Part shown: positions 5,518 to 63,657 of the stretch, piece by piece | Layout of the letters: each line of letters starts with the position of its first letter | Numbering within the stretch: position 1 is the first letter of the stretch | Source: Adineta vaga | Lineage: Eukaryota > Animalia > Rotifera | Assembly: GCA_021613535.1 (NCBI GenBank) | Contig: CP075496.1 | Location: 15,004,001 to 15,068,000, forward strand | Direction of reading: 5' to 3' | DNA length: 64,000 nucleotides | Notes under the pieces: model-generated | Databases searched by the model: none | What the model was told of the DNA's origin: nothing | What the model saw: only the letters and a program-made list of their open reading frames with translations | Made by a program: the position numbers and the translations under genes

Positions 5518-5594
5518 TTGAGGATGTGAGTGTGTTGATGGATATACATGAAACTATGCTCTGAACTTACACTCTCACCAATACCCACACTCGA
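5518..5594. repeat. Telomere-like hairpin junction motif (copy 1)
   Basis: TTGAGGATGTGAGTGTG ... ACTCTCACCAATACCCACACTCGA. Confidence 0.75.
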
Positions 5595-5904
5595 TTATGG
5601 GTTATGGACTATATCTTTCTATAGTATTGAGAACAGTTGTTTTGTCAAGTTGGTTTTGGATGTTACTTTATGACATTTTCACAAAGCATACGTTTATATG
5701 TAGATTAGGTAAATTAACCCAGTGAGAATGATGCACCATATAGCTTTATACTATAGTTTGATATGAAAGAATACATCTAATGAAGTTCGAAAAGGTTTCT
5801 ATTTCGAGTTTCATTAGCAGAATACTTTAAAACATAATAAAAAAACTTCGTATTTGTTTTGTTTCTGGTTGTAAAAACTGACGAACTATTTTTATGTTTC
5901 AATA

Positions 5905-6320
5905 AAAAATCAATTGAACTTCTGAGTATTCTACAGAATTTTGTATATCCTTTTTTGAAGTAACAAGAAGACGATAACTAACAAATGGTATCGAAGGATT
6001 AGTCATTGCTTGTAACACACCGAATTTTGATCGTCCAGGATCAGAGATGAGTCCTGAGGAACCATTATAGATCAAAGTTCAACTTGATCCCAAAGTAAGA
6101 GTCGATCCATTGAAATTACTTTCTTCGATAGTCACTGTCAGCAGATCCTGTTTTACATAAGCGGCATTTGTACCTAAACGAAATGGCCCAAGTCTCATTG
6201 GTCTATAGTACCTATTGTTATATAGAAACCAGTGTTTTCTCCACATTGTTTACCACCAGCAGTTGTATTCCATATTACATATACAATCTCATTTGTTTGC
6301 TTAAATAATGTCACATCTAT
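5905..6320 (-). pseudogene. Remnant of an uncharacterised lineage-expanded extracellular domain gene
   Basis: Reads VIWNTTAGG...NTGFYIT...LTVTIEESN...LGSS*TLIYNGSSGLISDPGR...SYRLLVTSK...VEYSEVQL with an internal stop. Confidence 0.55.
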
Positions 6321-6426
6321 TAAAATGAAAAAGGAAATTAATTTTTCTGTATGTATATTATATGTTATAATATGTAAAATTTGAATGTTCAGTCATGTAA
6401 AATAAAATAGTTATTATGAGAATACT

Positions 6427-7228
6427 TCCTATTCCCAAAAGTTACACATTCCGGAATCGCTTAATCCACACTACTAATGACAGTTCAATTCCGGAATTCC
6501 TCTTATTCCAATCCGGAACTGCTTGATTCCATTCCTACAAATGCTATCAAATTCCTGCTTATTCCGGAATAGCTAAGATATATTAGTTGAAGAAAAGATC
6601 ATCCTAAACGCTCAACTGAATTTCCGAGCGGAATTCCGGAATTCATGCATATCCGGAGCAACTGGGATTTGGCAGGAATTCCTGCATTTCCTGCACATTC
6701 CTGCCTATTCTGGATATGCACGAATTCCGGAATTCCGCTTTTACTTTTCATGGCTACTAATGTATGATTATCTGGTTATACTATATAGATTCGCAATTCC
6801 GGAATGTGTAGGAATTCCTGTATTTCCTAGTAAATCCGGAATTGCTAAGATATGTTAGTTGAAGAATACGCCAACCTCATCAATCGATCGAAATCCCGAG
6901 CGGAATTCCGGAATTCCGCTTTTACTTTTTATGGCTACTTATGCAGGGTTATGTGATTATACTATATAGATTTGCAATTGCGGAATAGGCAGGAATTCCT
7001 GGTCATTTCTTGTGGGTGCAATGCTAGGAATGCACATCCATCTGCACGTTAATCCTTTTCTATATGTCAGACAATTCCGGAATTGGCAGGAGTTGCTAGG
7101 AATTAGATTGGATCAGTAATAATCGAGTATAAGGAATTCCGGAATGGGATGAGATGAATTCCGGAATTGAATGACAGTCACTTTAGTGGGTCAAACAATT
7201 CCGGAATGTGTAACTTTTTGGAATAGGA
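6427..7228. mobile_element. MITE with long terminal inverted repeats, rich in TTCCGGAA palindromes
   Basis: TCCTATTCCCAAAAGTTACACATTCCGGAAT at the left end and ATTCCGGAATGTGTAACTTTTTGGAATAGGA at the right; internal duplicated blocks; no clear TSD. Confidence 0.85.
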
Positions 7229-7835
7229 TGACTGCTCGAAAAATAATGGTTCCTATTGAGAACGTGTTGTTCAATGAGTTGAATATAAATATGTGGTTTT
7301 CTAATGGAAAAAAAGACGTAAAAATCTATAATGTTATTTCGAAAGAAATTGAGATATTCTTGATTTTTGCTTTAGTAACAATTATTTATTCGACAGATTT
7401 TAAAGAAAAATAAAGAACACATACCATATATATATTTATTTGTTAAAATACTGAAACACTTAAGGAGAAAATACTAGAAAGACTCTTTTTCTTTTTATCA
7501 TACATCCTTTTTCTTTGTTTTCCTCTGTCTTCATCCACTGACTAACGTCTTAAATTGAAGTGTGGCAATAAATTATAATATCGTATTATTATCAAACAAA
7601 AACTATGTTTTCAATTTTAGTTTTATTGACACTTTTTATTCTTTATTATTTTATTAGAGAAAATTATTGTAACCACAGAAAGAGAAATATAATTCAATGG
7701 TTTATAAGATAACGATCACAGTATATTATTGTACTTTTTTTAATCTATCATACGACTAATCTTGGTAAAGTATTCACTTAGTGATAAAGAACATTTTTCA
7801 TATTGTTTTTATTAAATCACGAGCTCGTTGTTTTA

Positions 7836-7970
7836 GAGAACTCAGTGTGAATGTGACTTAAACGTGAAGAATACATCCATACTCTCACTCGGACCCTCAG
7901 GAATGTAAAAAGAAGCGAGCATATACATGAGTTTGAATAAAAAAAACATATCTACACCCTCACACCCTAA
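7836..7970. repeat. Telomere-like junction motif (copy 2; two C-rich arms)
   Basis: ACATCCATACTCTCACTCGGACCCTCAG (7873-7900) and TCTACACCCTCACACCCTAA (7951-7970); weak G-rich arm AGTGTGAATGTGA upstream. Confidence 0.6.
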
Positions 7971-7984
7971 ACAATATGTTTTTT

Positions 7985-8119
7985 AACGGTTTTCGTTTAA
8001 CTAGTCTGTCGTTCAGACCGGTTTTCGTTTAATCGCTTTTTCTATTAGAGCGGTTTTCGTTTTAGAACGGTTAACTGTATACGGTGAAGCGGTGAATAAC
8101 CGTTACCGTTGCATCCCTA
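7985..8119. mobile_element. End of a hAT-like element with CGGTTTTCGTTT subterminal repeats
   Basis: Three CGGTTTTCGTTT repeats ending in GCATCCCTA (reverse complement TAGGGATGC). Confidence 0.55.
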
Positions 8120-8340
8120 ACAATCACCAACAGACTTTCATCCGTACGATCATCTTATAACGATTTCCTTTGAATTTCTGTGTAACTCACTTCGGCTATT
8201 CATTGAATAGTCGATTCTTCATGGAATAGTGATGCGAAGAAAAAGAATAAAACGTGAAAAAAAATCATTTTTCTATCAGGCTCTTTTTTCTATTGTGTCG
8301 CACATCTCACATCAAATATATTCTATCTATCTGAGACAAA
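8120..8340 (+). repeat. About 220-bp dispersed repeat, copy A (copy B at 20297-20540)
   Basis: ACAATCACCAACAGACTTTCATCCGTACG ... CTGAGACAAA is nearly identical at both loci. Confidence 0.9.
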
Positions 8341-14900: not shown

Positions 14901-15311
14901 AAATTGAGAAATATCTTTTTTTTTTTGTTTTAAATTTAATAAATTTTCCAAGGATACAAATCACATTACTATACAATGTATATAAATGAATAAATAAATA
15001 TTTAATTTAGTTTATCATTTTTTTAGAGATTTGTTGATGTTGGTTCAATACGACGATTTTGACTCAGATAGAATGTAGAATATAACATAGGCCATAATTC
15101 ATTTCTAAACATACTTGATGTTAATGTAGAAAAATAAAATGAAACTGCAAGAAATACATAACTTAATCTACCAGATATACTTGTTATAAAATTTTCTATT
15201 GATATTCGATCAGAACTCTTGTTCAGAATATATAAGAAGAAATAATACTTTAAATCATTCATGGCATTATTATTATTATATAAACAATGATTTGAGCAAA
15301 TAACATTCCAT

Positions 15312-15360
15312 CTTGAGGGCGTGGGTCTACATGAGACTATGCTCTTAACCCATACCCATC
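15312..15360. repeat. Telomere-like hairpin junction motif (copy 3)
   Basis: CTTGAGGGCGTGGGT-ctacatgagactatgctctta-ACCCATACCCATC. Confidence 0.85.
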
Positions 15361-15932
15361 TCTTTTTGCCTTTAAATTTATATTTATGTCGATTCTTTAC
15401 ATTTCCTTATACATAAAGAATGCTATATGTTGGTAAAAAAGAGTCGAAAATAATAACAACATTCTCAAACATCCTTATGGTTTATTACGAAATTTATAAT
15501 TAGCGATAGCAAGCAGAAAAAATATTAACAAATAATAAAAATAAAATCAGTCTTTGGTAAATAGTGTATATAGTATTAGATAAGAATATTCACATAGATA
15601 GTATAGAATTTTGCATTCTTGTGTTTTTGAAAATAAATAGGACTTTTTTTTCTCTTACAAAATAGATCCAACACGACACATTTCATTCATTTTTTGTATA
15701 AAAATCTTTTTCAAAACATAAAATATATAATACAACTGTAAATAGTGAGTATTATTTATAAAAAAGTAATTGATACATTTTTATGTAAAAGATAAATATT
15801 TCTTATAGTGAATGCAATTCTGATCTTATTTTTATATTAATTATTATTGTATCAGTAAATTCGGAAATTATTATTAACTCTTATTTAACAGCAAATAATC
15901 AATAAAGTGATAGTTTAAATAAATCTATTTAG

Positions 15933-18388: not shown

Positions 18389-18820
18389 GGAAGTTTTCGT
18401 ATTGAATGAATCAGTTAATTCTAACTAGCAATAGTTTCGTTTGTTGAGTATATTGTAACGAACGATATAAATGATAAATAGTGGTCAGAAGGCAACGAAC
18501 AAAAATTTTCCATTGTGTATTTCTTGTTTCTTCCTTTTCTACTCGATGATTGATTGTAACGCTTTGATAATTTCGTATAAAATAATGAAGAATATACATA
18601 TTGAGATTTTACTAAAATTGATTCAGACTTATTTTTTTCAATTTTCTTAACTATGATTATAAGGAAAAGGTAAGATAAAGTGGATGAAAATGAGAAGTGA
18701 GCAATTAAATATAGCGTTTAGTGTTCAATTGCATTCATGCGCACAAGAGCAGTCATTCTATTTTACAATGTTGAAGATATGGAAATCATATCCGACCGGA
18801 AAACGATTCGAGGAATTGTT

Positions 18821-18894
18821 AAGGATGTAGTATTAACATATTTACAGATCAGTCTCATCTAAAACGCCATCCTCATTCTCACACCCTCTTCAAG
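18821..18894. repeat. Telomere-like junction motif (copy 4)
   Basis: AAGGATGTAG ... CCATCCTCATTCTCACACCCTCTTCAAG. Confidence 0.65.
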
Positions 18895-19197
18895 ATTTAT
18901 ACAAAACAATTAATTACCATTATAGATCGTTATGAATAGTACAGACACAGAATATTATGATGATAAAAAGTTTTTGAATATTTTTTTATCTGTATCACAA
19001 TTTTATTTAGTTTTTTTTTATCACGTTCAAATATTGTTTTTTTTTGTGAGAATATGTGATTGGAGATATTTAATAAATCGATGAATGACAAAATGTCATA
19101 TCATAAATAAATTCAACACTAAATTATATAGAAGTCTATTTCAGATAAGAGATAATTTATGTGCCTCATTCTTTTTTTTATTATTCAAAATAGTTCA

Positions 19198-20540: not shown

Positions 20541-22785
20541 TGTCGTCAGGACAAAAATCTCTAAATTTGTATTTTAAAAGAAAAGAAATTGCCGAAGAGT
20601 CGGACTACAATTTAACAAAAAAGAATAAATTAAATGATAATTTAAATAATATTACGAATGAATAGAAGAGAAATTGTAATTATGTTGTAAAAAAATTAAT
20701 TAAGTTTTGTATAATTTATTATAGAACAAAAAATTTTGGAGGTAGTAGCCCATCCTAAAACACCAGCCGCTCACCCGAAGAATGAAACCTAGATAAAACA
20801 CTGCATACATGTACATCAAATCAATCAATACCTGGTATTGAGTAGTATTGAGTCAATATCTGTCAATTCCAAGTATTGGTACTGCGACATGCCTAATTCG
20901 ATCCAAGAATAGTAAATACAAATCGAATTGTTTCTAACTATATCTTCTTGTTTCCTTCCTAAAAATTTGGATAAGCCAAATATGTCAGTGATTCTTGACC
21001 AAGCATAAGACGAAAATCATAGGAGAAAATGATAAAAATCAGAAGGTTTGGCAACCCTGGTTCAGAAATTATATCGAATGCTTGAAATAAACTTTCAGAA
21101 CGAGAAGGAAGACAGAAACACTGACTTAATTTGCTTGTACAGGTATATACATTTTTGTTGAAGAAAATTTTGGGGAATCTAAATCTTTATTCTGAAGATT
21201 ATAGTTGTTATCTTAATAAACATGATAGTCAAAGTGAAGTGGAATCTGAAGAAAATATTTCAGTTGAAGTTGATGATGAAGTAGATTCAAAAGAATCATT
21301 AAGAATGAGTTCACAGAATCGATTTAAAAGTTTTCAAAGATCATAAATAGTTATTCCAAGTGAACGTTCAAATAAATTAATGTCTTTCATCGCTAGATTT
21401 AATTATAGTTCGAATAGAAATCTTCTTTTCTTTTTCCTTTATTTTATATATAAGGTTACATTTATTACTACAAAGGAAGATACCTTCTAAAGATAGATTC
21501 CTTTGTTTTATTATAATTATATATTTTGATGGATTCTGTTCAATTTTTTCTTTTACTATTAATTCTTGTGAAAATAGTGTATATGAATGGAACAAACAGT
21601 CAATCGTTATAAGTTTAATCCTTAGATATAGTCACCGGAAAGAGAAAGAAAATGTGTTCTTTTATGAGAAATCAGCGTGTATACCTGCAAAAATTTAAGA
21701 AAGAGAAATGTATAAATTTCTCAATCACGTGGAAATGTCCTGCACTTTCCACAATTTAAACGAGAATGAGATTGGATTGTGATTTGATTCTATAGTATAG
21801 ATATATTCGATCATGTCGTTGTTTTCTACCTTTTATACAAATTTTAGATGGGTAATGAAACTTACAACGTCGGTTTTGATGGAGCTGCTTTCGTTCGCTA
21901 TCGATACAACAACAGCCATATCCAGTTGTAATTGCAACGGTAAATATAAATTGTAAAAATCCTATTAATTTAACATTACTTTTTTAGTTCGAAAAAATAG
22001 AAAACAAGAATACAGTCGTTTATCAATACTTGAACAAGTACTGGATCGCGTAGATCATAATTTAAATGATGAAGAACAAGACCGATTAATAGTCTCTCAT
22101 ACAGCGATTCGTTCGATCTAACGATACTGTGGTAAATAAAAAAATTAATACTACTGATAGAAGTTTTTTGTTTAGAAATTGAACTTCTCAATAATTGAAC
22201 GATATTCGATATGATTAAACAAGAAGAAAAGAATTTAATAAAACTAGAACAACGTGTTCTTTATTGACATATATACCAGAAGTGTCAAACTTGAAACTTG
22301 AATTAAATCGAATATAAATTTCAAGCTTGACACGTATGACTCTGACCGAGAATTATTATACGCCGTCTGGTGATAAAGGTGACCGATATCAATAAAACAA
22401 TTTAAATCAATATCATGGATGAAAGAAACCCAAATTTCTAATGTATACGACGATATTTCATCAACGCTGAGTAATACTCTTTTCGCTCGTACTGCAGATA
22501 TTGTTAGGTAGTGATTGACCAAAGACCAGCTGATACCACATATATGACGTCATGTAGATCACTTTTTCACACTATATATATATATATCTTTTGATCTCTG
22601 AATAAAAGTAGTTCATATATCGAATAACATCTTTCTCAAACATTGATATTTCACGTTTACGAAAGAAACTAGCTTTACAATATTGATTTTAACGGAAGCT
22701 CTTTACTGCTTTATTCCATTTTTCCACCGGATACAAATTCACTAATTCATCACAAACCATATAATACATTTGAAATGCCAACGTG

Positions 22786-22832
22786 CTGAGGGTGGGTGTG
22801 AATAAAGGCAACAACACCCACCCACACTCGAG
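22786..22832. repeat. Telomere-like hairpin junction motif (copy 5)
   Basis: CTGAGGGTGGGTGTG-aataaaggcaacaa-CACCCACCCACACTCGAG. Confidence 0.85.
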
Positions 22833-23606
22833 TCGATAACTAGATATAATATCGCGTAACCAAAACGGATCTAATGAAAATATAAAAATCAATAATCATC
22901 AATTTTTTGTTATACGAAATAACTATCCGTTTTCGACTCCTGGACAAATTTCGTCACTTCCGAATAAAACTTAACCTTTCATGATATATATATATATATA
23001 TATTATTGTATTATTTATCATGTCTCGATTTGAATACATTTTGTGTATAATCAGTCCACTGTAAGATATTATATATGTGATACATAATGTGCGAAACGAA
23101 AGAATAAGTTAGGATTCACGTGAAAAAGAAAGGAAATAAAAAGGTAAATATTAAGCGAATGTCCGACTATCGTCTATGTTTATATCATTGATCAATACTT
23201 ATTTACTATTATTTGTGTTTGAAAGTTTGAAGGTAAGAGAATATTTCTAAGACAAAATATATTTTATCAAATCTTCTTTCTGTTTTATTTGATAAATAAC
23301 CAGCGATTTACGTGAGAATGTTCATATTCAACAAGATATCATACTTCTATTATACCTCATTTCGAAGTACTTTCTCATTGTTTTTATTAAATATGTATAA
23401 TATTAAAGAACGGTTCATAAATAACACGACGACAGAAATTTTATTCGCTAAGTATAATGAAGATCAAAATTTCGTTGTGATGTTTAATTAAGAGTTTATG
23501 TAATCATGTCTATATGATTTTTCAAAGTTAAATACTTTCATTCGTGGAAAAATGAATCTTTATTATCAACACTCTCTTTCAGATCGTGTTTCACAAAAAA
23601 ACGGTT

Positions 23607-24657: not shown

Positions 24658-25080
24658 AAGGAAAAACTTTATCTATTTTCTTATATTTTGTTCAAATAAA
24701 GTGATGAAAACAAAATTAGAAAAAAAAACAAACAAATCGATTCTTTTTCTTTTTGTTTATACGATATAAGTTCTAAACGAATCTTTCGATTGTTATGAAA
24801 TTTCGTACACAGATTTGACTCACCGATATCTCGATCGAGTTCGAAGACGAGAATAATTTATTCAGAATTCACGGAGTTACAAGAAAAAATGATCATGAAA
24901 CGTTCTATATGTTGTAAATGCATTAACAACAATTATATTATTGTTTATTAATTGTAATTTTTTATTTATTCGTCTATTCATTTTTAGATGATGGTGAGAG
25001 AATATAAAATGAAATTATAAAAAGAGTTAACTGATTATGAAAGTCTCTTCTCAAGAAATCAATTCATTTATCATTCATGT

Positions 25081-25118
25081 ACACACACACACACACACAC
25101 CCTCACCCACACCCTCAA
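25081..25118. repeat. Telomere-like junction motif (copy 6; C-rich arm extended by (CA)n)
   Basis: (AC)n-CCTCACCCACACCCTCAA. Confidence 0.8.
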
Positions 25119-25860
25119 TAATTGAAGAAAAATAATCAGCTAAATATAACCATAGAGAATCTCGAGTTGATTTCATACAAGTTGAAATAATTAAATATGG
25201 TAAAGTTAAACTAATAAGAATCAATTGTGTAATAAGAATATTTTTATATTGTTGAAATTGATTTTTTAAATTTTGTTTTGTATGTTTGATTTATTTATAT
25301 AATTGAACGTCGACGAACTGATTGAAATATAATTAATTATAAATTCAATTAATATAGAAGCAACGATATGATTTGATAAAATTCTCATTTGTGTAAATAA
25401 TAAATAGCAAAATATAATTTGAAATAAATTCATTGTTAACAAAGATAATATTTCGATTAGAAAAAAAGCATGTGACTTTGTAATCATATATGATGATGAT
25501 TTCTTTTTCTATTTAGAATAAGTTTCTAATTTAGTTTTTTCTTTAACGTCACTACTATTTTGTTTAATTAATCGAGTGTTATAAGGATACATAAATTCTT
25601 CAACACCTACGCGATAATAAAAAGAAAATGTATTTTTTTTTATATGCTAATTAGAATATTTTCGGAACAGTCATATGACATAAAAAATGAGAGGCAACAT
25701 GAACATTTATTTTGTATTTAAACAAAAAAAAGAAAATTTCAATTAGTTGTTTTTATAAATAATAAAATGAAAGAGAGAGAAAAAAGAGATATAAAAAGGA
25801 CATTCATTAGTAGTTAATACTTATATTTTCAAGGAAGAAATTGAAATTTGACAAATTAGA

Positions 25861-28800
25861 ATGACTTGGATAAAAATATTAATATTATTTTTCATCGTTA
25901 TTCTTGAACAATCAATCGGACAAAATATAAGATCATTTCAAATGCATATTATCAATGAACATCTATTTCAATGTATAACAACAACTTGTTTACCATATTC
26001 AAACAATATTGTATCAAATATTTTTCAGTGTCAAATTAATTGTTTATCAGACATACAATGTAGAGCTGCTAGTTTTCATCAATTCAATTCTACTTGTCAA
26101 TTGTTTAATAATACAACAGATAACTACAACAATTTGGAAATAGTTATTGGATCTGTTACTATGATAGTCATATCTAAAACACAAATAACGTCTGGTAAGT
26201 AGAAATTTAATATTTATTGAAAGTATGAAATAATGAATTTGTGTAAATTCAAGATTTGTCCTAATTATCTGCAAATACAAGTTTTGTTAATTTCCTATTT
26301 TTTATGAAAAACTCGAAGGATAACGAGAATAGAGTACGAAATTTAGATTGTAAAGTACTATGTATTATCATCTGAAATAGTGTTCTTTATTATAATTCCC
26401 TTTTCTGAAACAAAAGGATTATAAGCTCGTTAAAATGCTTAATGTTTGTTTGATTGTTCAAGCCAATCAGGAAAAAGCATTTCATCGAACGAGAAGAACT
26501 TACTTATATCCACACTAGTCGATGATCTTGCTTGTCGTCTTTCCAGATTCTTGTATTTGAGAATGATCATTAATACAGCTCGCAGTTACAATTATGTTTC
26601 TCCGATATTTTATTGAAATCTTTGCGCAGAAAGTATAATGAATTAAGAAAAATATTTATAAAAATATTAAGAAATTCTTCACGTGTACGCACTTTGAGAT
26701 AATTTTAACCGAGGAAGTCGATATAAATCTGAAGAAGAAAAACAAAAGCAGTTGTTAATTGAAATATTTACGTACTTTATTTTTAAGATGTTGTTAAGAA
26801 CTTAAAGACTAAAATAGAAAAAAATAAAAATGAACAATAAAGTACATGTAAACGATTTATATAGATATTCACATAGAGCATGACTCATTTTATCTCTCTC
26901 CTACAAATCTGCCTATAGGCTCGTTGAAAGAATCAATTCAAAAATGTCGATTAGTGCACTATGAAACGATTATCTTGAGCTAGTCGGGGTCGAGCAACAC
27001 TAATCTATAGTGTTAGTTTTTTTTTATAAAATAAATTCTGCTCCTGTTTTTGAGACAAAGGATCCTTTTTTTGCAAAAGTATTTCTTTTAAAAGGATTCA
27101 CTGAAGGCTAATCGACCATGTTGTATCTGTGTCTAGTATTCGAATGGTGGTTTGTTTTAGCGTTTGTTGTCAGTATTTATAATAGCGCATACTGGTAATG
27201 TCGCAAAAAGAGAACGGAAGAGAAACTATTTATTCGCCTTAATAAAGAACAGAAAAGCGATCGACATAATTGTGGTGCCACTTGAAACGGTTAGTCGCGA
27301 GTGGCCGATCGGAGGAAGACCAACGAACGACTAGACATTAATTTGAGAGATTTACAGCGAGTAAATTGATTAAAAGCAAAATGCTTTTGAAGAAGTGGGC
27401 AAGTGATTTAATTCAAGAGCTGATAAAATCTTTATTGTATCGTAAGGTTGGTCACCGATATGATCACATCCTTTGAGTAGAGGGACAGCAGCGTTGCGCT
27501 GCGTTACTTGTTATTTAAGAATAGATTAGCCATACCGTCTAAAGAAATAAGAGTCGACATTGTCAAGTAATAGCACGATTACTGGTTAGTATAGACTCTT
27601 CTCTGGAAGAACAAGAGTATTCTGTTATTTGTATTTCACAGATATCGATTGTTTTGTAGTAATATTTTCTTGAAAGGTCCACGAAATAACTCACAATTCT
27701 AAATGGTGGCGTCATATCATTCGCCACGTTTCTATGTGAGAATTCCTGCTTATTTGTATTCTGAATTTTAAGCGTAATAAATGATGCTTTCTCAATGGAC
27801 ATTGAGTGAAAATGACGAGAATGAGTCATATTATATATATGAGAGGTATAGCATTCTTATAGAGCATATATAGCTCAAAACTGTACATTTACTTGTCAGT
27901 TCTCTTATAGTTAAGAAACCTCTGACATCAAAACTATAATTCTAGACCCGTTTTTTTCCCCATAAAACTCATTATGAATTTTCTTTTAGAAAAGGGTCAG
28001 CGAATCCCTCGAATGAGAGCTGCTTGTGAATATTATTCAACTAGTTTTAAATTTTACGAATTATCTTAGATAGAAATAAACTGAACTTTCATAGAAACTC
28101 AATTTCAAATATAAATACCCATAAACTTCATTTTTATTTCTTTCACAAACTAAAGAATCAACCTCAACGTCAAGCTCTACGTCAATGCCAACCTCAACCT
28201 CCACATCAACATCAAGTACTAGCGCAACATCAACGTCAACAACAGCATCAACTTCAACATCGACAACAACAACAACAACAACAACAACAACAGAAGCTAA
28301 AGGTATGTCGTAGCCTAAAAAGCTGCTGTTTTGTATAAAATGAGGCTATGTCTCGATATGTGCAAATGACCATATCCATACTCACACCCAAGACGAATAT
28401 CTTTAACTTAAGAATACATTTTGTTTATTTATTCGTATTATTTAGTGTGGAGAACTGCAGGAAGTATGAATATTACACGAGGATATTGCACAAGATCGGT
28501 CTTAAAAAACGGAATAGTGTTGGTGGCAGGTGGACAGAATAGTAGTGCTTATCTAAAAAGTTCTGAATTGTATAATCCATCAACAAATATTTGGACAACA
28601 ACAGGAAACATGAATACTATACGAAAGGCTTATTTAATGTCCATTCTATCTGATGGAACAGTGTTAGCCGCAGGCGGATATGATGGCGTTAATTATGTCA
28701 ACAGTGCTGAACTGTATGATCCATCAACAGGTATTTGGACAACTACGGGAAGTATGAATGTAATACGAGGCTATTACACATCAAGCATCTTAGGAAATGG

Positions 28801-29440: not shown

Positions 29441-29717
29441 TAAACACTCTAATGAAAAACATTTTCTTTTAAAAACTAAATTATCAAATAAAATATTGTA
29501 TTCATATGATTTATTTATCACTGCTTCTAACTCTTCAATTATTAATAAATAATATTCGATCACTTTTAAAAAAAACTTGAGATTTCCTCCAAATCAACAT
29601 AATAGATTTTCGATTTTGCTCGATGACTTTCTCTGTATTTAATTATGAACATAGCGCCTGTTTATATATCTAAAAAACTTTTTTTAACTTTACATTAACG
29701 TTATTTTTTACAAGAGA

Positions 29718-29752
29718 TCCACACCCTGACTTTGAGTAATAGTCACATCCTA
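29718..29752. repeat. Degenerate junction motif (copy 8)
   Basis: TCCACACCCTGA ... TCACATCCTA. Confidence 0.45.
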
Positions 29753-33164: not shown

Positions 33165-33200
33165 TCATCATTCATCTTTTTTTTAAGAACATTTAATCGA

Positions 33201-33261
33201 TAGGGTGTGATTAACACTGGTTTTTACTGTATATCATCACTCACATCCACACACACCCGTC
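33201..33261. repeat. Telomere-like hairpin junction motif (copy 9)
   Basis: TAGGGTGTGA ... CACTCACATCCACACACACCCGTC, about 36 nt after the reductase stop codon. Confidence 0.75.
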
Positions 33262-37305: not shown

Positions 37306-37393
37306 CAAGGATGTAGGTGTAGTTGGGTAGGTATAAGTATTCTGTTAGTTCTTAACTACACCTATCCATATCTTCACTCACACCGTTCACAAG
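37306..37393. repeat. Telomere-like hairpin junction motif (copy 11)
   Basis: CAAGGATGTAGGTGTAGTTGGGT ... ACACCTATCCATATCTTCACTCACACCGTTCACAAG. Confidence 0.7.
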
Positions 37394-39548
37394 AACTTTC
37401 TTGGAATTCGACTGAAGATATTTCATTATATGAATTTGTTAAAATTTGATGATGTTGAACAATCATATCTAAAATTTCATTTTTATTATTTAGATTTTTT
37501 TTAATATATCATTGTTGAATAAATCGACTGAACGGCATAATTATTACGTTAAAGAGTACAACAGATAATCCAAATAGTTCAAGATAAGACACTATAAAAT
37601 AGAATTGAAAAATATTCTTTATATTTGAAATTGTTGCTCACAAATTTTGGACCTAATAAACAAATTCTTAGACCACCAATAAAATATAGACCTATTAAAT
37701 TAAATTGTAAATTAATTCGATGTTGAGGTAAATGAGTAGAAAGAGATAAAATAAAATAATCATCATCAAACGAACAATTGAATTCTGTAAATGATTTATG
37801 TCGATCTCTATCCATATTCTGTTGCATTGTGATATTATCACAAAAAAATCCTGTACTAACAAATTCAACATTGAGAGTAATGGGTTGTTCATCTAACATG
37901 ATAAATTTCATGATTGATCAAATCAAATTGTTTAAAGATCTTTTTTAATAATGTTCGATTTGATTTTTGTTTTGGAAAACAATGTAAAATACTAAGAATT
38001 ATAATGAAAATTAATCCTAAACCAATAGCAATCGATGTCCAGAATAAAGGTGAATATAAAAGACATTTAAAATTCAATTTAAAAATCTTATCCAATAAAA
38101 CATCATCGAATTGTATTGATTCAGATGATTCAGAATATGAATTGATTTGATCAGAATCAGATATATGAATTTTATTAATTTCTTTCACAACTGATCGAAC
38201 ACAAAACGAATCATTAATTGAACATTGATTACATTCAATACGTGATCCATTATTTTTAGTATTTGATGGACAAATAAAACAAGGACTAAAATGTGTTGTA
38301 TTTCGTGAAGTACCTGTTATACATGGTCGAGACAAATATATTCCTAAACTGATTGAATCATCTATATGTGTACTACAATAAACCGATGGACTTGCTGGAA
38401 CAATAAAAGCTTCACCATATGATTGACAATAAAACCAAAATGATTATTCCAAGCAACTAGACGAACTATATGATCAAGTCGTTCATTCAGTTTTGGAATA
38501 AATTGTTGATTATTCGGAAAGATAAAGATAGGATATTTACTAGTTGAAGATGAATTATCGATTGAATAGATCTTTAATAAAACAAAATAAAAAGTGAAAT
38601 ATAGTTTTACTCAAATTTTATCCTTTTCCTACCTGAACTTGAGATTTGGTCCATGGCAAAGTTGGTAGAAAGTGAGCAAGTACACCAAACATTCGATCAT
38701 TGAATACAACCACTGATTGACCAAATAAAACTCCAGTTTGTGATGAAATATATTCTGTTACAACGACTGGTTGATAAAGTCTATTGAGAGATACGATAAT
38801 AACTTTATACAAATAGGGAATACCGATGACAATTATTCGCGTTTTTTCATGAGCTGAAATGGACATATGTGTACTTTTGGCTGAAAATTGATCAAATTTT
38901 GAATTTGATAACCGTATGGATGCAAGTTTTGTTCCATTATTTATTGTAAATACGAATAAGTTTGAAGTATCATACCAGCGAACAGTCAAAAGTGCAATAT
39001 ATTCGTCAATAATATAGTCATATCTGTAGGAGAAACATAACGATAACCATCCCATATTTTTGTATGATTGATTTTTAAGATAGATTTTGTTGAAATATCA
39101 TAACGATAAGTATACTGTAATGAAAATGCATATGCCGAATTGCCAGAAAAAATCATATTCGTCTGAAAAGTTAAATTCAAATTAATCGTTACACTTTCAT
39201 TGATCTGCATAAAATCACGACTATCTGCTTGTAAAATAATCACACCTAATCGCCATGTTTCATCAAAAATTGTACTACCACTATTACCAAGAATAGCTAA
39301 ACTATTGATATTGATAATATTGGAATAATTAAGTTGTACATATCGTAGAATAATCAGAGATATTAGGAGAATTTTCTTATTTGATTATCTGCGAATATAA
39401 CTATAGAATCACTAATTGCTAAATGTGATCCGAAAGTAACAGATATTGTAGTATCATCTATATTGAAATTCTGTTTTCGTGCAAATTGAATAGAATTTAT
39501 ATTAATATATAAATTCGAAATGAAAATATAGAACAGTAAAAGTAACAT
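37374..39548 (-). pseudogene. Membrane protein with Cys-rich (GCC2/ephrin-receptor-like) repeat; frameshifted and 3'-truncated
   Basis: Signal peptide, PCITGTSRNTTHFSPCFICPSNTKN, TM segment SPLFWTSIAIGLGLIFIIIL; several frameshifts; last frame stops inside junction motif 11. Confidence 0.65.
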
Positions 39549-41992: not shown

Positions 41993-42300
41993 TTTCTTTT
42001 TTCTCCAAATAACAAATAAACAAGTAAGTTTATGGGGTTTTTTTTATGAAATTATTACCTTCAATTAATATTTTCACGTGTGTTTGAATAGAAATAAATA
42101 ATTTTACCTGTAAACGAAAAAGAAATCATTCAAACGTTACTCTATAATTAAGAATACAATCATTCTTTCTTTATACATGTTCGTCATCTGTATATATATT
42201 CGAAAGGAAAGAAAAATATATCGAAAGACATTAGACAAGATTTTGCTTCAATGAAAAAGAAATTTGAGTATATTTTTGAAATAAAGATATAATTCAGTTT

Positions 42301-42351
42301 TAGGGTGGGTGTGAGTGAGGGTCTCTTGTATAGACACTCACCCACACCCTA
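42301..42351. repeat. Telomere-like hairpin junction motif (copy 12)
   Basis: TAGGGTGGGTGTGAGTGAGGGT-ctcttgtatag-ACACTCACCCACACCCTA. Confidence 0.9.
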
Positions 42352-42458
42352 CTTTGTTTTTCATATTTCTATCAGTTAGTTAATTCAACAATATCGTTTA
42401 ACATCGGCTTATATTAATTTCGGAATTTTTCCACTGATTTTATTATACATGAATGTAT

Positions 42459-43624: not shown

Positions 43625-44170
43625 ATGCCTGTTCTATTAGCATCGGAACGAAAGTCGATGATCAGTTTGAATTTCTCTGCAATGGTTGGATCTAAATTCA
43701 GTCATCCGTTTCCATCTGGATGCAAACCGCAAGATCTTTACAAAGTGGTTGCTGAAAAACTTTATCCAAATTTCAAAGACGATGTCCAGCCAGGATGTGA
43801 GAATCGAATTGTGTTTCCATTTAAACTTCTAATAGCAGGGAAAACAATCCCATTTAATGATAGTACTATTGAAGACAAGAATTGTTTCGAAGAAATGAAA
43901 AAACAGATGAATCCTCGAACTGTTATTCTAGTTGGTGAGAAATTATCAGGTGGTAGCGACAGAGAGTTATTTGGTATGGATGCTCTCACCGCAAAATTTT
44001 TTACTGAATTTAAATCGGAATTGAACAAACTTCCAACGTCGTCGGGAGTCCAATGTTTAGTGTGTCACGGGACGAAAGATTGCATTCAGTTCACTTGTCC
44101 TACAAAACAATGTCTGAATCGTGTGTGCAGAGCATGCTTGCCTGAACATTTCGCTCAAAAAGCATCTTGA
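43625..44170 (+). CDS. Ubiquitin-like + RING-like protein, probably 3'-truncated
   Basis: Ubl-like N-terminus ending KLSGG; Cys cluster CLVC..C...C..C..VCRAC; the stop codon is supplied by junction motif 13. Confidence 0.55.
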   Translation: MPVLLASERKSMISLNFSAMVGSKFSHPFPSGCKPQDLYKVVAEKLYPNFKDDVQPGCENRIVFPFKLLIAGKTIPFNDSTIEDKNCFEEMKKQMNPRTVILVGEKLSGGSDRELFGMDALTAKFFTEFKSELNKLPTSSGVQCLVCHGTKDCIQFTCPTKQCLNRVCRACLPEHFAQKAS

Positions 44171-44213
44171 GGGTGTGGGTGAAAGTGATAGTTGTATCTG
44201 ATACCCACACCCT
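44166..44213. repeat. Telomere-like hairpin junction motif (copy 13)
   Basis: CTTGAGGGTGTGGGT-gaaagtgatagttgtatctgat-ACCCACACCCT; perfect 11-bp stem. Confidence 0.9.
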
Positions 44214-44593
44214 TTATTAATCAATTTGTAGTATTTGATTTTCTATTTCAATAAATCAATTGAAATAAAATTGAAATGACCAGAATTGTAATATTCCATA
44301 TTTTTATGAACGTTTCATGTCCACACCATTGATAACTTGTTTTTGTTAAACTTTTTACTTTTGCATCATAACAGATTTTTAATTTTATTCCTTATTTAAA
44401 ATAATACTTTACTAACAAGAAGTTAATTTTAATCTTCAACATTTGAAATGTAATCAATGATTATTTATTGATTTGAACTAATAATAAAAATTGATGTGTT
44501 TTTCTGTTTTCTCTAAAAAATCTTAAAAAAGAACGATTCATTGGTATTTTTATTTTGAAACGAAATTAATAGCTAATTTGCGTGACCGTGAAC

Positions 44594-44728
44594 AAAAAAG
44601 TACAAACATAGTACTGGAACGTTCTTTTTTATCGTAATACACATGAAAAAGTACGATCATAATACTCGAACGTTCTTTTTTATCGTAAATAAACATGAAA
44701 AAGTACGATCATAGTCCTTGGTGTTCTT
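44594..44728. repeat. About 52-bp tandem repeat, 2.5 copies
   Basis: AAAAAGTACGATCATAATACTCGAACGTTCTTTTTTATCGTAA-like units. Confidence 0.75.
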
Positions 44729-45153
44729 CATAATTATATGTCACAAAAAGAATTAGTTGAAACGGATAATTGTAATATTTTCGAATGAAATCTATATCAT
44801 TAGATTTACAAAAGAACAAATTTCTTTCTTCATTGAACTATTCGGAAAAAAAGAAGAGAATTTTGTTTTTGCTTTTTCTGGAATATATGAAACGAAATTC
44901 ATCGCAAAATATAGATGATTTTAGCAACATAACAATATACGTCACGCTTCAATGCCCACTTATTTTTAGCGATTAAATAATTATATACGGGGTCAAATTT
45001 TCATCTGTATAAATACCTTTGAAGATACATTTATCTTCATGATCATTTCTTCTATATAATTTTTTTTATATATTCTACTCCTACGGTAAGATATTAGATA
45101 ATATTTCTATTCAGCATTATTCTTCTTTTTTAATTTATTTAGTATTCAACAAT

Positions 45154-45607
45154 ATGAATTCACCAATTGTCGCTTTTGTCCTTTTTGGCATTCTCTTCAT
45201 CAACTCAATCAATGCAAGAAGAATTAATGTTGACGATTCAGATGAACGACGTTTTGAAACTCTATTTACGAAACGAGGTGCTACTTACGGAGGTATTTCA
45301 TAATATTCTTCGTTTATCATAATATTATTAATGAATGTATTATTTATTTTCTTTTATAGTTATCGAAACATCAAGTAGATGTGTAAGTATAATTAGTGGT
45401 AAAGATTATAATGGTGGTGATATAGATATTAATCATCCAGTACAATTACGTTCAGCTGCTGCATGTGCTGGATTATGCGATTCAGTTCCCGATTGTTTTC
45501 GTTGGTCATTTGATACAACAAATGGAAAATGCTTCCTCAAAGATACAGCAGCTCGTTATATCGACAATTCCAAGACTTACACAGGTGAATGTACCAAATC
45601 TACTTAA
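45154..45607 (+). CDS. Small secreted prepro-peptide with a single PAN/Apple domain (2 coding exons)
   Basis: Signal MNSPIVAFVLFGILFINSINA, RR/KR sites, DYNGGDI...CAGLC...C..WSF....CFLK...YTGEC. Confidence 0.8.
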
Positions 45608-45984
45608 AATTTTCTTCATCGATGGTGATGAAATAATAAAGAACTTTTGAATACTAAAAATATACTTCATATCCATTTTATTCTTTTCTTTTCTTTTCTT
45701 TTCTCTAATAACTAACAATAATCATTCTTTTTATCATATTATTAATAAAATTTTAAGTTTCAATTGCATACCTGTCGATACATTTACTGATAATTATTTA
45801 ATTTTATCATGCTTTCATATCGATATCATATATTAAAATGAAGTAAATAAGAATAATTAAATTTTGTTTAATCAACAAAGGGTTCGAATATGCTATCGAT
45901 CAATGTATTCTATATTTACTTATGAATTAATTTCTCATCAGTTCGATCACACACATTCATCGTTTAATATCTGAATAAACTACG

Positions 45985-47490: not shown

Positions 47491-47782
47491 TTTAAAAGTC
47501 TTTTATGTATAAATTTTGATTGGATCCGGATCGGGTCAGGTCCCGGTCCCGCTTTATGGCTTTGATGAGCACTCCTATTATTCTTTCAGAAAAGGGTCAG
47601 CGAATCCAAAGGATGAGCGTTACTTGTTAAATAAATAGACAATATAATACTACTTGATTATTTTGTAATGCATCACTAGGGATGTAACAATACCAATACG
47701 GTATTGGTATTAGTACTCAGGTCTACAAATCCGACAACGGATCCGATAGGATCTTATAGAATCCATTCATCTTACGTAATCC

Positions 47783-47858
47783 TAGAGTGAGGGTGTCATT
47801 CCTTTACGTAGTCAGACACACCCTCACCCACGCCCACGCCCGCACTCTCACCGTCAAG
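47783..47858. repeat. Telomere-like hairpin junction motif (copy 14)
   Basis: TAGAGTGAGGGTGT ... ACACACCCTCACCCACGCCCACGCCCGCACTCTCACCGTCAAG; about 6 hexamer units. Confidence 0.9.
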
Positions 47859-48444
47859 AATTACATTCAGACACGTCTGCATATGTGATTTTTCGCATTA
47901 TGTTCGGTGTTATTAAGCAACCACAAATTAGATAGCAAAACTTAGGTGTAAAGAGCGGGTTTGTGATTACGTCATTAATGTGAAATCTCATGAAAAGAAT
48001 GGCAAAAAAGTAACGTAGTATTTCTAAATATACCGTATTTGTATGGGTTTTCATGTTTTGTGGCATGCTTTATCTTTCCAACGTAGAAAAGAAAAAAGAT
48101 AAGAATATTTAAACAGCATAAATACTGCCTGCAAATATGATTCAATCCTTAAAGGGAATTCTCCCTCTCAATCATAAATCTGTAGATAAATGCGCAGAAG
48201 GCAGAGAATGTCTGTTATGGTAGAATATATCTCTTCTGCAATGAGTATATATTTTCTTACATCTCTCTTTGTTTCATTCTATCATGTCTCGATATATTCT
48301 GTTCTGTTTCACGTTTTGAGTATTTAAAGGAGTGAATAACACACGAAAGGGAGTTGATAAATAAGAATCATCTTTAACTTATTTCTCTTAAACTCGACTT
48401 TACTGATCACATTAATCTACGAAGAAAATACATATTCCTAAAAA

Positions 48445-48681: not shown

Positions 48682-48912
48682 ACTGTTGTAGACTATTACA
48701 TAGATAATCAAAAAAATTATTTATTTATTCTTGAAATAAATATATGGAAATTAGTAAAGATACCGTTTGGGTTTGATACGTCTATTTTCAATCATCTTCA
48801 TGTCTTTGTGGTTAATTTCGTTGCAAACTCACAGTTTGAAGAATTCTTGCAATTAATTGTTTTATTGTTCAAAAAGAATGAAAACACCACTTTGAGTCTA
48901 TAATACGTTCTA

Positions 48913-49017
48913 CAAGGATATGTGTGGATCTGAGGGTAACAAAAAAGTGTTTTTTTTTAAATGAGATTATTGGTAGAAGTACGAGTGTGAGTTAGACTTC
49001 GTATTTACATTCTTAAG
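48913..49017. repeat. Degenerate junction motif (copy 15)
   Basis: CAAGGATATGTGTGGATCTGAGGGT ... GAGTGTGAGT ... ACATTCTTAAG. Confidence 0.5.
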
Positions 49018-51473: not shown

Positions 51474-52662
51474 TTCGTGAAAAACTATATTGAAAATAAT
51501 CTTCGATGAATACACTGAATAGTTAATAATGAATGATTTAGTTATCACAAGTATAATATCTTTTTTCCCCTATACGTATTATCTTCCAGTCAACAAATGA
51601 TATGTATCACAGTACTTACGCTTATCTATAAAAGAAAGCACAAAATATAGTTGAAATTCTTTAGGATATATCGAGACAAACGTAATTTGTTTATCATTTT
51701 TGTCTTTCATCGTTATACGAGTGTAGAAAGAACAAGGAAAAGAATGGTCGTTTTATTCAATAGATTATGGAAAAGTTATTCTAGAAAACATAAGTCAAAG
51801 TACGAAAGATCAAAACTTAAACTATTGAGATATCAAATAAATAAAAAACAATTACGAAAGAAAAAGAGTAGAGACCGTGAAAGTACAGAAAAGAGATCTT
51901 CACGCACGTTCTCATTTATTTCTTCTACATATCTCGTTTATTTCTGATGAATTAACTTCTAAAAAGGAAAGTAAACAATTCAAGAGAGAAAAGACAGACT
52001 TGAAGTACAAAAGTAATTCAAAGTATGTAGAAGTAGCTGAAAGTACTTCAAGTCCAGAATTTTACCTTTTTCTCCTTGATTCTTGAACACAAGTATAACG
52101 ACAAACTAAAGGAGTAAAGCTTTATTACTTTCTTTGATATGATGTTTATTGATTATTCTACATATTCAGAATGCAAAGATTTGATATATAATATACTTTT
52201 GTATACGAGAGAAAGAGATAAATATACAAGTAAAGAAAAAACGATGGAATCTATAGCAAACAAGTTTAACAAAAATCAACTTGAGAAAACTTTATACTTC
52301 TGAATAAATTAGTTTGTGTGACTATATTGTTTTCATTTTAGACTTGATGAATAAGAGAAAAACTTCTTATGATAATTCATTATATATACTTTAAGCCAAC
52401 GTAGTATTCATTGAAATTATGATCTATTTAGAGTATATATTTGGATACCATGCTCGTTTAAGATAATGATCACTAGATTTTCAATAATAAAGATGAATAT
52501 ATTTTGTTGAGGAGAATTTAATCTAACATTCATTTGATCGACGTTATATTGAAAACTCCTTAGTATTCCAAATAAAACATAAATTTTGTTTGAAGGCTAT
52601 TATTCTTTGTTTTACTTTTAAAACATTTTGTGCCAATTTCTCAAATTAGTTGTATTTTCTTG

Positions 52663-52723
52663 TTGAGGAAGTGTATCGATGGGATTCATTTGTAAATATG
52701 CTATCCACACCCACACCCTCAAG
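52663..52723. repeat. Telomere-like hairpin junction motif (copy 16)
   Basis: TTGAGGAAGTGT ... ATCCACACCCACACCCTCAAG. Confidence 0.85.
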
Positions 52724-52915
52724 ATTTTCTTTCTTCCTTCTTCTGTAGTTAGGACAATAACGTATGGTGAAATAACATAGTAACGGAAAAAAATAAAACG
52801 CACTGCATAGAGTTCTTTTTTTTTCATCACCGATCATATTTTCTTGTTGCTATAGATGTGAAAGAACAGAAAGCGAAAAAAAACACAGAATATGTTATTT
52901 ATGTAAAGAAGAGAA

Positions 52916-54128: not shown

Positions 54129-54297
54129 TGTCACGGCATTTTGCCGTGATATCTCATGAGTCAAGGCATTCCTTACTCATGTGTATATGATTCCTGAGTC
54201 ATGTATACATGAGCAAGGATATATATACGCGCTTCGCTTATGCTTGAGGGTGTCTTCCCTATTGTATTCTCTTTGATCACAATACATACTCATCACA
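54129..54297 (+). repeat. 5' LTR
   Basis: TGTCACGGCA...TCATCACA; contains TATATATA. Confidence 0.97.
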
Positions 54298-59997: not shown

Positions 59998-60009
59998 GAA
60001 GGGGGGAGG
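59998..60009 (+). promoter_or_regulatory. Polypurine tract
   Basis: GAAGGGGGGAGG abutting the 3' LTR. Confidence 0.9.
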
Positions 60010-61504: not shown

Positions 61505-61739
61505 CGATTTTGATTGAAAAGAAAAGAAAGTGGAATCAATGATTGTTTGCATTTTTTATTACACAATCTTCTATTTCATTATTGTAAAAAGAAGATTTTA
61601 TGAAGTAATTACATCATACCAATATAATTACAATGTATATCACAAATTTCTTAGACGTGAGAAAGAATGAGAAAGCTATGATGTTTCGATTACATCGCTT
61701 TGTAAATCAACGGAAGATTATTTTGCTACAGACAAAAAC

Positions 61740-61769
61740 GTTGCGGGTTCGATCCCCGCCGAAGCACCA
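61740..61769 (+). pseudogene. tRNA 3'-half fragment ending in CCA
   Basis: T-arm GCGGG-TTCGATC-CCCGC followed by CGAAGCA-CCA; no recognisable D-arm. Confidence 0.55.
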
Positions 61770-61912
61770 CTTAAATCGAACGTGCACTCTTTCTCTTTAT
61801 TTTTATTATAATTGAGTAATATTTTTTACTTGTTTAACATTTATTCACCGTTTTATTTCTACTGTTATTAATTCAATATATAAGAAACTTGCAAACGATT
61901 GCTTATCGCCTA

Positions 61913-61922
61913 GTGCACATTA

Positions 61923-61954
<32 letters not shown>

Positions 61955-61961
61955 GGCCCCT
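61913..61961 (+). ncRNA. U6: U6 snRNA, 3'-truncated
   Basis: AAAATTGGAACGATACAGAGAAGATTAGCATGGCCCCT matches conserved U6; the expected GCGCAAGGATGAC continuation is missing. Confidence 0.9.
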
Positions 61962-61981
61962 AGGTTGTGGATGTGTAAGTG
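61961..61981. repeat. Junction motif G-rich arm (copy 18) at the U6 breakpoint
   Basis: TAGGTTGTGGATGTGTAAGTG. Confidence 0.65.
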
Positions 61982-62004
61982 AATCTTCGGATAAACGGTA
62001 ATTG

Positions 62005-63657
62005 TTAACATAAATTTAAAAGAATATTTAAAGTAAATTTTCCATCACCAGTCACAGCAATATCAATCTTTCCATCAAGATTAAAATCTCCTGTTATAAT
62101 TGCAACAATATAAGGATCAGTTTGTAATGTTTGATAATGAATAAATGTTCCATCTTGATTATTTAATAAAATATGAATAAAATGATCATAATTATTTGAA
62201 ACAATAATATCAATAAATGAATCATTATTTAAATCAGCAACAGCAACTGGTATCGGAAGACCATTAATATAATATGAATGACGTTTATAAAAATTTCCTT
62301 GTCCATCATTAAATAAAACTTCGACTGTTGATGAACCATGATTAGCAGTAATAATATCAATAAAAGAATCATTATTTATATCAGCAATTGTTATTCCCCA
62401 TGGTGAAATTCCAGTTGAATATGTTTTTCTAGGTTTAAAAAAACCTTTTTTATCATTTATATAAATACTAATTGTATTATCACTATAATCAGTAACAACA
62501 AAATCTAAATAAGAATCTTGATTAAAATCTGCAATTGATACAGCTGTACAATCATGACCAGCTTGATACATTATTGAATAATTAAATGATAAATTATGAT
62601 AATCATAGAAAATAGTTACAGAAGAATCATGATCATTAACAACAACAATATCTAATAAAGAATTTTTATTAAAATCTTCTATATCAAGCCAATATGGATA
62701 ATATTCAATTGGATCATTTCCAACTAAATATTCTTTTATCGAACTAAAACTTCGATTTCCATTATTAATTATAATTCCAATTGTACCAGTATAAAGAAAT
62801 GATATTATTATATCAAATTTATTATCATTATTCATATCTTTAATAGTTACATAAACAGGATTTTGAGGAGTTCGATATATAATTGCTGATTGAAATGTTC
62901 CATTTCCGATACCATAATAAAATCCAACTGCACTTTCTCCTCGAAAAATAACAGCAATATCAAGATAAAGATCTTCATCTATATAACCAGTACTTAATGA
63001 CCAAGGAGTATTTCCAGTTAAATAACTTGAATAATTTGAAAATTGTATTGGATTACATAAAATAACTAAAAGAATTTTTTGATTTAATTTAATTATTAAA
63101 ATTAAAATTAAATTAATTACTTTGAGATATATTCTTTATTGGAATTGATGGTGTTACTAAAGAAATTTATTTTAATTATTTTCTTTTCGTCTTCACTTAC
63201 TTTCTGTTGAATTTAGTTTAATTTCAGTTGTTTTTTTAGATCTTTTTGAAACAATTGTTGTTTCTAAAAATAATTATCATTATAATACTCTTCTGTTCGA
63301 ATTCTCTCACTATAATTGAGGGTGTGTGAGTATTAGATAGTTAAAATATACACATGTACATCCTCAAGATTGATGTATAATTTTTGAAGAGATTTTAAAA
63401 AAATGAATATTCTTACCGATATTATATTTCGTATTATTGACAAAAAAAACTGCTTGAATACGAAGAAAGATAATGACAATAATAATACTAATAAAGATAA
63501 ATATTGGTATTATAAAACAACTCCAAAGAAGAAATCGAGATCTTTTTGATATAGGATTTTCTCTTCAATAAATTTATATTTTAAAAAAAATATATATTAA
63601 TTCAATAGTTAAGTATTACTTTGAAGACAATATTTCTTCATTTGATAATTGTTCCAT
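62005..63657 (-). CDS. FG-GAP/VCBS-repeat protein with N-terminal TM segment (multi-exon; 5' structure uncertain)
   Basis: Repeated D-[FIL]-N-x-D-xx-[LI]-D-[IF] motifs; upstream short exons and a hydrophobic exon at about 63420-63570. Confidence 0.75.
63316..63368. repeat. Telomere-like hairpin junction motif (copy 19), in a predicted intron
   Basis: TTGAGGGTGTGTGAGT ... ACACATGTACATCCTCAAG. Confidence 0.85.

Follow-up and report, generated by a model that had tools for sequence, protein, structure and literature searches.

Hairpin Copies and Their Arms

We analyzed a stretch of 64,000 nt from the bdelloid rotifer Adineta vaga (contig CP075496.1, positions 15,004,001–15,068,000; hereafter the window), three of whose proteins match named A. 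vaga proteins (I4U23_021877, 021881, and 021882) at 99–100%. Its genes and a young long terminal repeat (LTR) element are accompanied by approximately 18 short hairpins and half-hairpins made from the telomere repeat of A. vaga itself. They constitute a dense and dispersed family of 50–90-bp hairpins with two facing telomere-repeat runs around a shared linker. An earlier note on this DNA had listed about 19 imperfect inverted repeats and proposed that they were either broken ends which received telomere-like units and were then joined, or attC-like recombination sites.

Arm-like G-rich or C-rich sequence is present at all 19 coordinates of that list; by eye, 14 sites have two arms (two of them weak), two have a single arm, two have a weak single arm, and one (53001) was dropped (table 1). 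Site 53001 is a coding coincidence, located in frame in a Ser/Thr/Pro linker of an open reading frame (ORF) with an ADP-ribosyltransferase domain, across which homologs are collinear. An additional C-arm, absent from the list, was detected at 7949–7973. Allowing three mismatches or fewer from TTGAGGGTGTGGGTG, we found 7 G-type and 11 C-type overlapping matches, compared with 0.23 and 0.37 in 100 local dinucleotide shuffles. Clusters at five mismatches or fewer were of the G..C type in 10 cases and of the C..G type in one (0.62 and 0.58 in shuffles), in agreement with the claim that the G-rich arm lies on the left. A profile gave a similar result: a matrix whose only training set was four arms of two metagenome contigs (with one seed shifted out of register by one base) produced 16 window peaks with a score of at least 14 (1.5 expected).

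The arms contain TGTGGG and TGAGGG hexamers, and their previous assignment to bdelloid telomere repeats agrees with the published ones: TGTGGG is the telomere repeat of A. vaga (PMC8494291), and Terminon ends contain both hexamers in reverse-complement form (PMC6431247). Single contigs span the 42301 copy in all three DNA-type runs (3/3), indicating that this copy is not the assembly artefact that had been considered. The hairpins are short and noncoding and have terminal inverted repeats, as do MITEs, the transposable elements known as miniature inverted-repeat elements. A fold z-score of −2 or lower was observed in only 6 of 13 folded window copies, the other 7 folding no better than shuffles. 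The complementarity of the two arms within a copy does not exceed that of arms taken from different copies (P = 0.17 and 0.41); thus, nothing indicates that pairing is under selection.

An exact search for the two-arm pattern returned two metagenome contigs of 33% GC, one of which has two copies within 1.5 kb. In viral contigs, a single-arm scan gave 120 loci resembling chance, with a second arm less than or equal to 150 nt away at one of them (L092); a two-arm scan gave two GC-rich matches, a third scan eight single matches, and two protein scans no bdelloid DNA. Three matches were obtained in a scan of prokaryote genomes. Two cyanobacterial matches (L126, 4986–5054; L127, 2136–2204) were rejected as family members; they are tandem CCCACACCC-TCAA-GGGTGTGGG hairpins with stem CCCACACCC, loop TCAA, and a different end geometry, and their likeness to the arms points to convergence. 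No description of this hairpin family was found in the literature searched, most subscription papers being outside that scope; a query with the sequence itself gave titles on other topics only.

Outer Ends, Linkers, and Flanking Sequences

The consensus given in the earlier note extends outward to ATCTTGAGGG. A full end consists of ATCTTG followed by AGGGTGTGGGT, that is, a fixed outer prefix of six bases before the core (ATCTTG then AGGG at the boundary). This structure was examined at 31 anchored window ends (one further end has no anchor). Among the 18 arms with at least 9 of 11 core matches, 13 keep three or fewer of the six prefix bases (0.6 expected under even decay, an expectation that is lowered by choosing arms by core match, yet the split remains), and four keep all six. 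Two ends with a perfect core keep 0 and 1 prefix bases. Conservation of core and prefix is uncorrelated (rho = 0.13, n = 31). The termini are therefore not precise and uniform as in MITEs; such ragged ends look like the product of variable priming or trimming and not like precise transposon ends.

The loops, previously described as variable spacers of roughly 11–30 nt, are 15–38 nt long and not random; different loci have subfamilies in common. Two outstanding pairs were found among 171. The loops of 5518 and 15312 (subfamily A) are identical at 20 of 22 positions (0 of 100,000 random intergenic draws), and those of 18821 and 52663 (subfamily B) at 20 of 26 (25 of 100,000); the 28341 loop joins subfamily B at 12 of 14. 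In addition, contigs from other loci align to 42315–42349, with different arm lengths and unrelated flanks. A common internal sequence, as expected of MITEs, is present within subfamilies and is weak over all copies.

Flanking direct repeats longer than 5 bp were detected in 1 of 14 window copies and in neither of the two tested metagenome copies; in the remaining 13 window copies and both metagenome copies they are 5 bp or shorter. The single case is copy 52662–52723, whose exact 8-bp repeat is the sole match of at least 7/8 when 30 ends are compared in all pairs (the position of one right end being off by a single base); none of 182 cross-pairs reached 8 bp. This repeat lies in a T-rich context, and its left unit may overlap the end of the element itself. 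The metagenome copy L122 has perfect 19-bp arms and no duplication. Of the target site duplications that the earlier note had named as a mark of an ordinary tiny MITE, one of 8 bp was thus observed, at 1 of 14 window copies, and a 2-bp AT duplication would be indistinguishable from the element end. A TNA duplication, as in Harbinger and NuwaII, was also considered and rejected, as the flanking TGA and TCA are inverted and not direct.

Location Relative to Genes

Of 26 gaps, 16 contain at least one of the 18 intergenic copies, compared with 11.8 at random (P = 0.005), a near one-per-gap spacing. Copy 28341, in contrast to the earlier description, lies inside an intron. The names of the derlin and Ig-LDLa genes come from the earlier note and from our own reading of the sequence.

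Comparison with homologs places two copies at gene truncations. The open frame of a Cys-rich RING-like gene runs for ~180 codons up to 44163, stopping within 1–2 nt of the prefix at 44164; all four full-domain homologs (4/4) extend ~46 aa further, and the missing remainder is absent from the window by tblastn. Similarly, a U6 copy is close to the Rfam model up to position 64, where its match ends at 61961 and the G-arm starts at 61962, with the stop codon of an FG-GAP gene ~20 nt beyond this arm. A drifted 3′ half of U6 is a possible alternative to truncation. Under a rough model, the probability that both truncations coincide with a G-arm by chance is 0.002–0.006. The N-terminal loss in the 52916 ORF was not counted as a further truncation of this kind, because it lies ~215 nt from the 52663 copy. 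This ORF (52916–53791) belongs to a large ADP-ribosyltransferase-domain family and lacks a ~85-aa N-terminal region of most of its closest relatives.

In 3/3 DNA-type runs, a contig of about half depth joins at 44157, which lies outside the prefix by 7 nt (the shorter side being only 25 letters); loose contig ends were also observed before 44156 in X4. Contig depth rises on the right side of 44166, where paralogous contigs are present. The RNA-type run contributed no more than four short pieces. Spanning of the 44163/44164 junction was derived from bin depths and not from listed contig pieces. In the public annotation, model I4U23_021882 (43625–45607) runs across the hairpin, combining the RING-like fragment and the PAN-domain gene downstream of it, and is probably an annotation chimera. 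In the same way, the reductase and the Ser/Thr-rich exon of the Kelch gene are united in model I4U23_021877.

Matches of the reductase (82%) and NDH2 (85%) in A. ricciae are never close to each other among the listed accessions, whose contigs are short, a weak hint of broken order. A Kelch-exon atlas search revealed rotifer Kelch clusters.

LTR Element and Other Features

The interior of the LTR element had been reported to be free of the motif. This is true of its coding part, where no clear copy was found (two C-type and one G-type peaks with scores of 10.1–10.4, within the shuffle background), but both identical LTRs end in an element-like 57 nt (54243–54297 and 60124–60178) beginning with CTTGAGGGTGTCTTC. 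The summed similarity of the LTR to the 18 copies is 420, compared with 333 ± 21 in GC-matched segments (0/400). The LTR end may be a hairpin captured by the LTR, or a shared binding site.

A degenerate tRNA-like gene (61696–61768) is located ~130 bp upstream of the U6 5′ fragment (61901–61961). The U6 match stops one base short of the segment duplicated by Dada-U6 transposons. Such a transposon, with U6 positions 65–70 duplicated and no terminal inverted repeats, was rejected, as the match ends at position 64 and GCGCAA is absent.

The window also contains conventional MITE-like repeats (6418–7237, 8120–8332 with 20297–20512, and 42460–43314), two of which have ~50-bp inverted repeats, and one of which, 216 bp long, is present twice at 94% identity. 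An intact NPP1-domain gene (9534–10811; Pfam E-value 8.5e-5) has 40% GC amid AT-rich neighbors. A small His-rich ORF of 78 aa (48447–48683) lies between two hairpin sites, and an isolated fragment at 46631–47409 resembles, by eye, a retroelement envelope-like ORF and has no Pfam match.

Table 1. Hairpin copies, arm remnants, and adjoining features in the window
Feature	Site	Position	Strand	Remarks
Two-armed copy	5518	5515..5597		Loop subfamily A; right end with variant TCGAGTGTGGG, common to 22786
Weak two-armed copy	7836	7836..7904		
Extra C-arm, TACATGAG before it		7915..7973		
Two-armed copy	15312	15310..15365		Full left prefix; loop subfamily A, 20/22 identical to 5518
Two-armed copy	18821	18816..18896		Loop subfamily B
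Two-armed copy	22786	22783..22834		Upstream of derlin-like gene; fold z −3.3
Single C-arm with CA run, inner end TCATGTA	25081	25075..25121		
Weak two-armed copy	28341	28336..28396		Within 143-nt intron 28303–28445, in-frame Ser/Thr-rich exon to Kelch exon
Weak C-arm remnants (weak single arm)	29718	29714..29755		
Two-armed copy	33201	33197..33264		~35 nt after reductase stop codon
Two-armed copy	35109	35107..35161		Full left prefix; right end stops at CCT
Long two-armed copy	37306	37303..37395		
Two-armed copy	42301	42297..42356		Inner arm and loop 42315–42349 found at other loci with unrelated flanks
Open 5′ fragment of RING-like Cys-rich gene		43625..44163	+	Stops at hairpin
Two-armed copy at truncation point	44166	44164..44220		Left arm perfect; right arm stops at CCCT
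Right flank of 44166 copy, small PAN-domain gene		44240..45650		Contig depth above RING part; paralogous contigs
Two-armed copy, long irregular C-arm	47783	47779..47860		
Weak G-arm remnants (weak single arm)	48913	48912..49012		
Two-armed copy 52662–52723	52663	52654..52731		Exact 8-bp flanking direct repeat; loop subfamily B; perfect right end 52708–52725
Element-like 3′ end of left LTR		54243..54297	+	Same in right LTR from 60124
5′ part of U6 snRNA copy, model positions 1–64		61901..61961	+	Match fails at G-arm start
Single G-arm	61961	61962..61985	+	Between U6 fragment and stop codon (62005) of opposite-strand FG-GAP gene
Two-armed copy	63316	63313..63370		Upstream of FG-GAP gene; full right prefix

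Possible Origin of the Hairpins

Judging from the sequence, the hairpins stand about an even chance of being telomerase-primed repair junctions bridged by a templated linker. In the model that we favor, a fixed template reading ATCTTGAGGGTGTGGGTG would direct the addition of G-rich repeats to a broken 3′ end; priming would occur at a variable point, hence the ragged outer ends, and the enzyme is likely to be telomerase. Annealing would follow, either of this capped end or of a bare one through a few bases of microhomology, to the RNA template or to the C-arm that an existing hairpin offers, and the linker and the far arm would be copied. Synthesis would finally rejoin the other broken end (an insertion) or run into the donor flank, giving a joint of unrelated gene-sized pieces. 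As every such event would add a hairpin, the family could spread without a transposase. We infer all of these enzymatic steps.

This model is supported by the geometry, repeat content, ragged ends, shared linkers, few duplications, and two truncations, as well as by the near one-per-gap spacing and the half-depth contig join at 44157. As in interstitial telomeric sequences (ITSs), the repeat is that of the host, and its G strand points outward from the flank that was broken. In A. vaga lines, deletion breakpoints have been seen to carry neotelomeres (PMC13564844). In mouse, 5–16% of ITS insertions have a duplication, and a few template-adjacent bases precede the repeats at 8 of 14 TERC-ITS loci (PMC2246262). 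No bdelloid telomerase RNA was found in the literature listing searched or among the Rfam matches in the window. We also tentatively consider, with more doubt than confidence, that the hairpin is a self-propagating repair joint: a capped break would copy an existing hairpin, often with a neighboring gene, using neither transposase nor recombinase, and the telomerase RNA would contain the sequence of 52708–52725 (CACCCACACCCTCAAGAT). Regions such as this one would then be patchworks of gene-sized pieces, and the fixed outer letters would represent the read-in flank of the telomerase template.

Several observations weigh against the repair model. The summed pairwise loop score exceeds all of 300 shuffles, yet is reached by 130 of 300 random window segments; when orientation is optimized, the score is reached by none of 200 shuffles and by 8 of the 200 segments matched for GC, a modest signal. 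Variant TCGAGTGTGGG occurs at exactly two window sites, both right arms, and TGA(A)CGG(T)G at three right arms among five sites. Such shared arm variants, together with shared loops, are also expected of a MITE family and misfit fresh synthesis of each arm. The exact 8-bp repeat at 52663 and the effect of selecting arms by their core belong here as well. If the gap test is limited to the 13 strictest copies, P rises to 0.056; copies are no closer to gene edges than expected by chance (P = 0.31), and GC content has no step at them (P = 0.37). The 28341 copy is intronic, with an intact reading frame across the intron, and several other gene fragments end without an adjoining hairpin. Finally, the limits of gene blocks and loops, and the ends, were set by eye by an observer aware of the copies.

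As the strongest competing explanation, a very small and old foldback MITE may have been mobilized by a transposase in trans; its terminal repeats would be telomere-like by chance, and neighboring deletions or recombination between copies would account for the truncations and the lost duplications. We regard this as possible, although we lean against it. It would account for the polarized shared loops and their subfamilies, the shared arm variants, the duplication at 52663, the intronic copy, the arms decaying independently as in dead copies, and the full ATCTTGAG at both ends of L122; moreover, the variable, internally repetitive terminal repeats of Galileo can cause inversions (PMC3573991). 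On the other hand, ends are ragged despite a perfect core (the right ends of 44166 and 42301), L122 has no duplication despite its perfect arms, no transposase partner was seen, and spacing is close to one copy per gap. The termini of hAT elements start with YA, unlike those of the hairpins. The termini also differ from those of ISL2EU, which has an AT duplication but a GG start (PMC4482050).

The literal form of one of the two earlier proposals, in which two newly capped ends fuse end to end and random filler separates them, appears unlikely. Geometry, ragged ends, truncations, and the scarcity of duplications agree with it, and the broader notion of ends that are capped and then joined retains this support as well as that of the near one-per-gap spacing. 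However, loops are homologous and polarized between copies and loci. Loops common to different loci, together with arm variants common to different copies, suggest that the middle was copied from a template or from earlier copies, and the literal form fails; it is largely refuted for both loop subfamilies (A and B) and for the 42301 type. It is quite improbable that the hairpins are cis-acting boundary or promoter elements, i.e., paired sites for a telomere-binding or CACCC-box protein present about once per intergenic gap. We take the arms to resemble a CACCC-box, and the one-per-gap spacing, the similar sequence at the end of both LTRs, and the same motif in two metagenome contigs would suit such a role, which is contradicted by the lack of a fixed side or distance to genes, by copies at gene truncations, and by heavy and uneven decay. 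Little credence can be given to programmed breakage and healing of the kind known from the nematode SFE, where cutting within the loop would leave a telomere seed on each side. The degenerate palindrome with telomere-priming sequence on both sides is as described for SFE (10.64898/2026.03.06.709695), but one site per ~3 kb misfits a chromosome-level long-read assembly (PMC8494291), contigs span 42301, and the breaks that were seen lie outside the arms and not in the loop. Least probable of all are attC-like recombination sites bounding gene cassettes, the other earlier proposal. Gene-sized spacing and conserved ends with variable loops had suggested them; they are opposed by arms that do not covary within copies, by the poor folding of 7 of 13 copies, by the intronic copy, and by the truncated, not whole, genes beside two copies. 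A Pfam scan of 35 of the 40 listed window ORFs revealed only the LTR integrase and no recombinase domain or linked tyrosine recombinase, as the earlier note had observed. A target motif of N4CMT was also rejected: it is YACGTR, unrelated to the arms, and no match was found in the supplements of PMC8885841, as far as these are accessible.

If the hairpins are repair joints, they would bear on the long-standing question of how bdelloids rejoin breaks after desiccation, expand gene families, and take up foreign genes. A countable scar at joints would allow repair events to be mapped and dated across published assemblies, and the fixed prefix would be a specific search string for the template of rotifer telomerase RNA. 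If the MITE explanation is true instead, the hairpins would be of moderate interest, as a tiny element that has escaped notice despite its great density, in what has been called a transposon-poor genome.

Comparison with Known Systems

Mammalian short ITSs and TERC-ITSs resemble the hairpins in having telomere repeats at breaks, sometimes preceded by template-adjacent bases, and sometimes a recurring extra templated segment, with site duplication uncommon (PMC2246262). They differ in that TERC-ITSs have a single repeat run after a TERC 3′ fragment (PMC2246262), whereas the A. vaga hairpins have two facing runs around a linker, a prefix on each outer side, and a density of about one per 3 kb. 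A. vaga neotelomeres and Athena/Terminon ends share with them the hexamers, the species, and a link to breaks and captured host genes (PMC13564844, PMC6431247). According to these descriptions, they have G-rich repeats on one strand, in head-to-tail chains with a hammerhead ribozyme; an Athena/Terminon end, with C-rich repeats after the ribozyme, was rejected, considering that the hairpin arms face each other and that Rfam at the gathering threshold gave only U6 and no ribozyme in the window.

MITEs and foldback elements such as Galileo are likewise short and noncoding, with inverted ends containing internal repeats, subfamilies, and a location at rearrangements (PMC3573991); the A. vaga hairpins are distinguished by their size of 50–90 bp and their ragged ends, and neither a regular target duplication nor a transposase partner was seen. 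In Penelope pLTR gene capture in A. vaga, short terminal structures also flank intron-containing genes of expanded families, and those flanked both there and here include Kelch, NHL, FG-GAP, and TPR (PMC3846280). The pLTRs are ~200 bp long, with 8–10-bp duplications and a low copy number, and the accessible text describes no telomere-like arms for them (PMC3846280). Finally, the Oscheius SFE is a degenerate palindrome whose telomere-priming ends face the center, as in the hairpins, but it is 29 bp long and cut in mid-motif (10.64898/2026.03.06.709695), whereas the contigs carry no sign of cutting at the hairpins.

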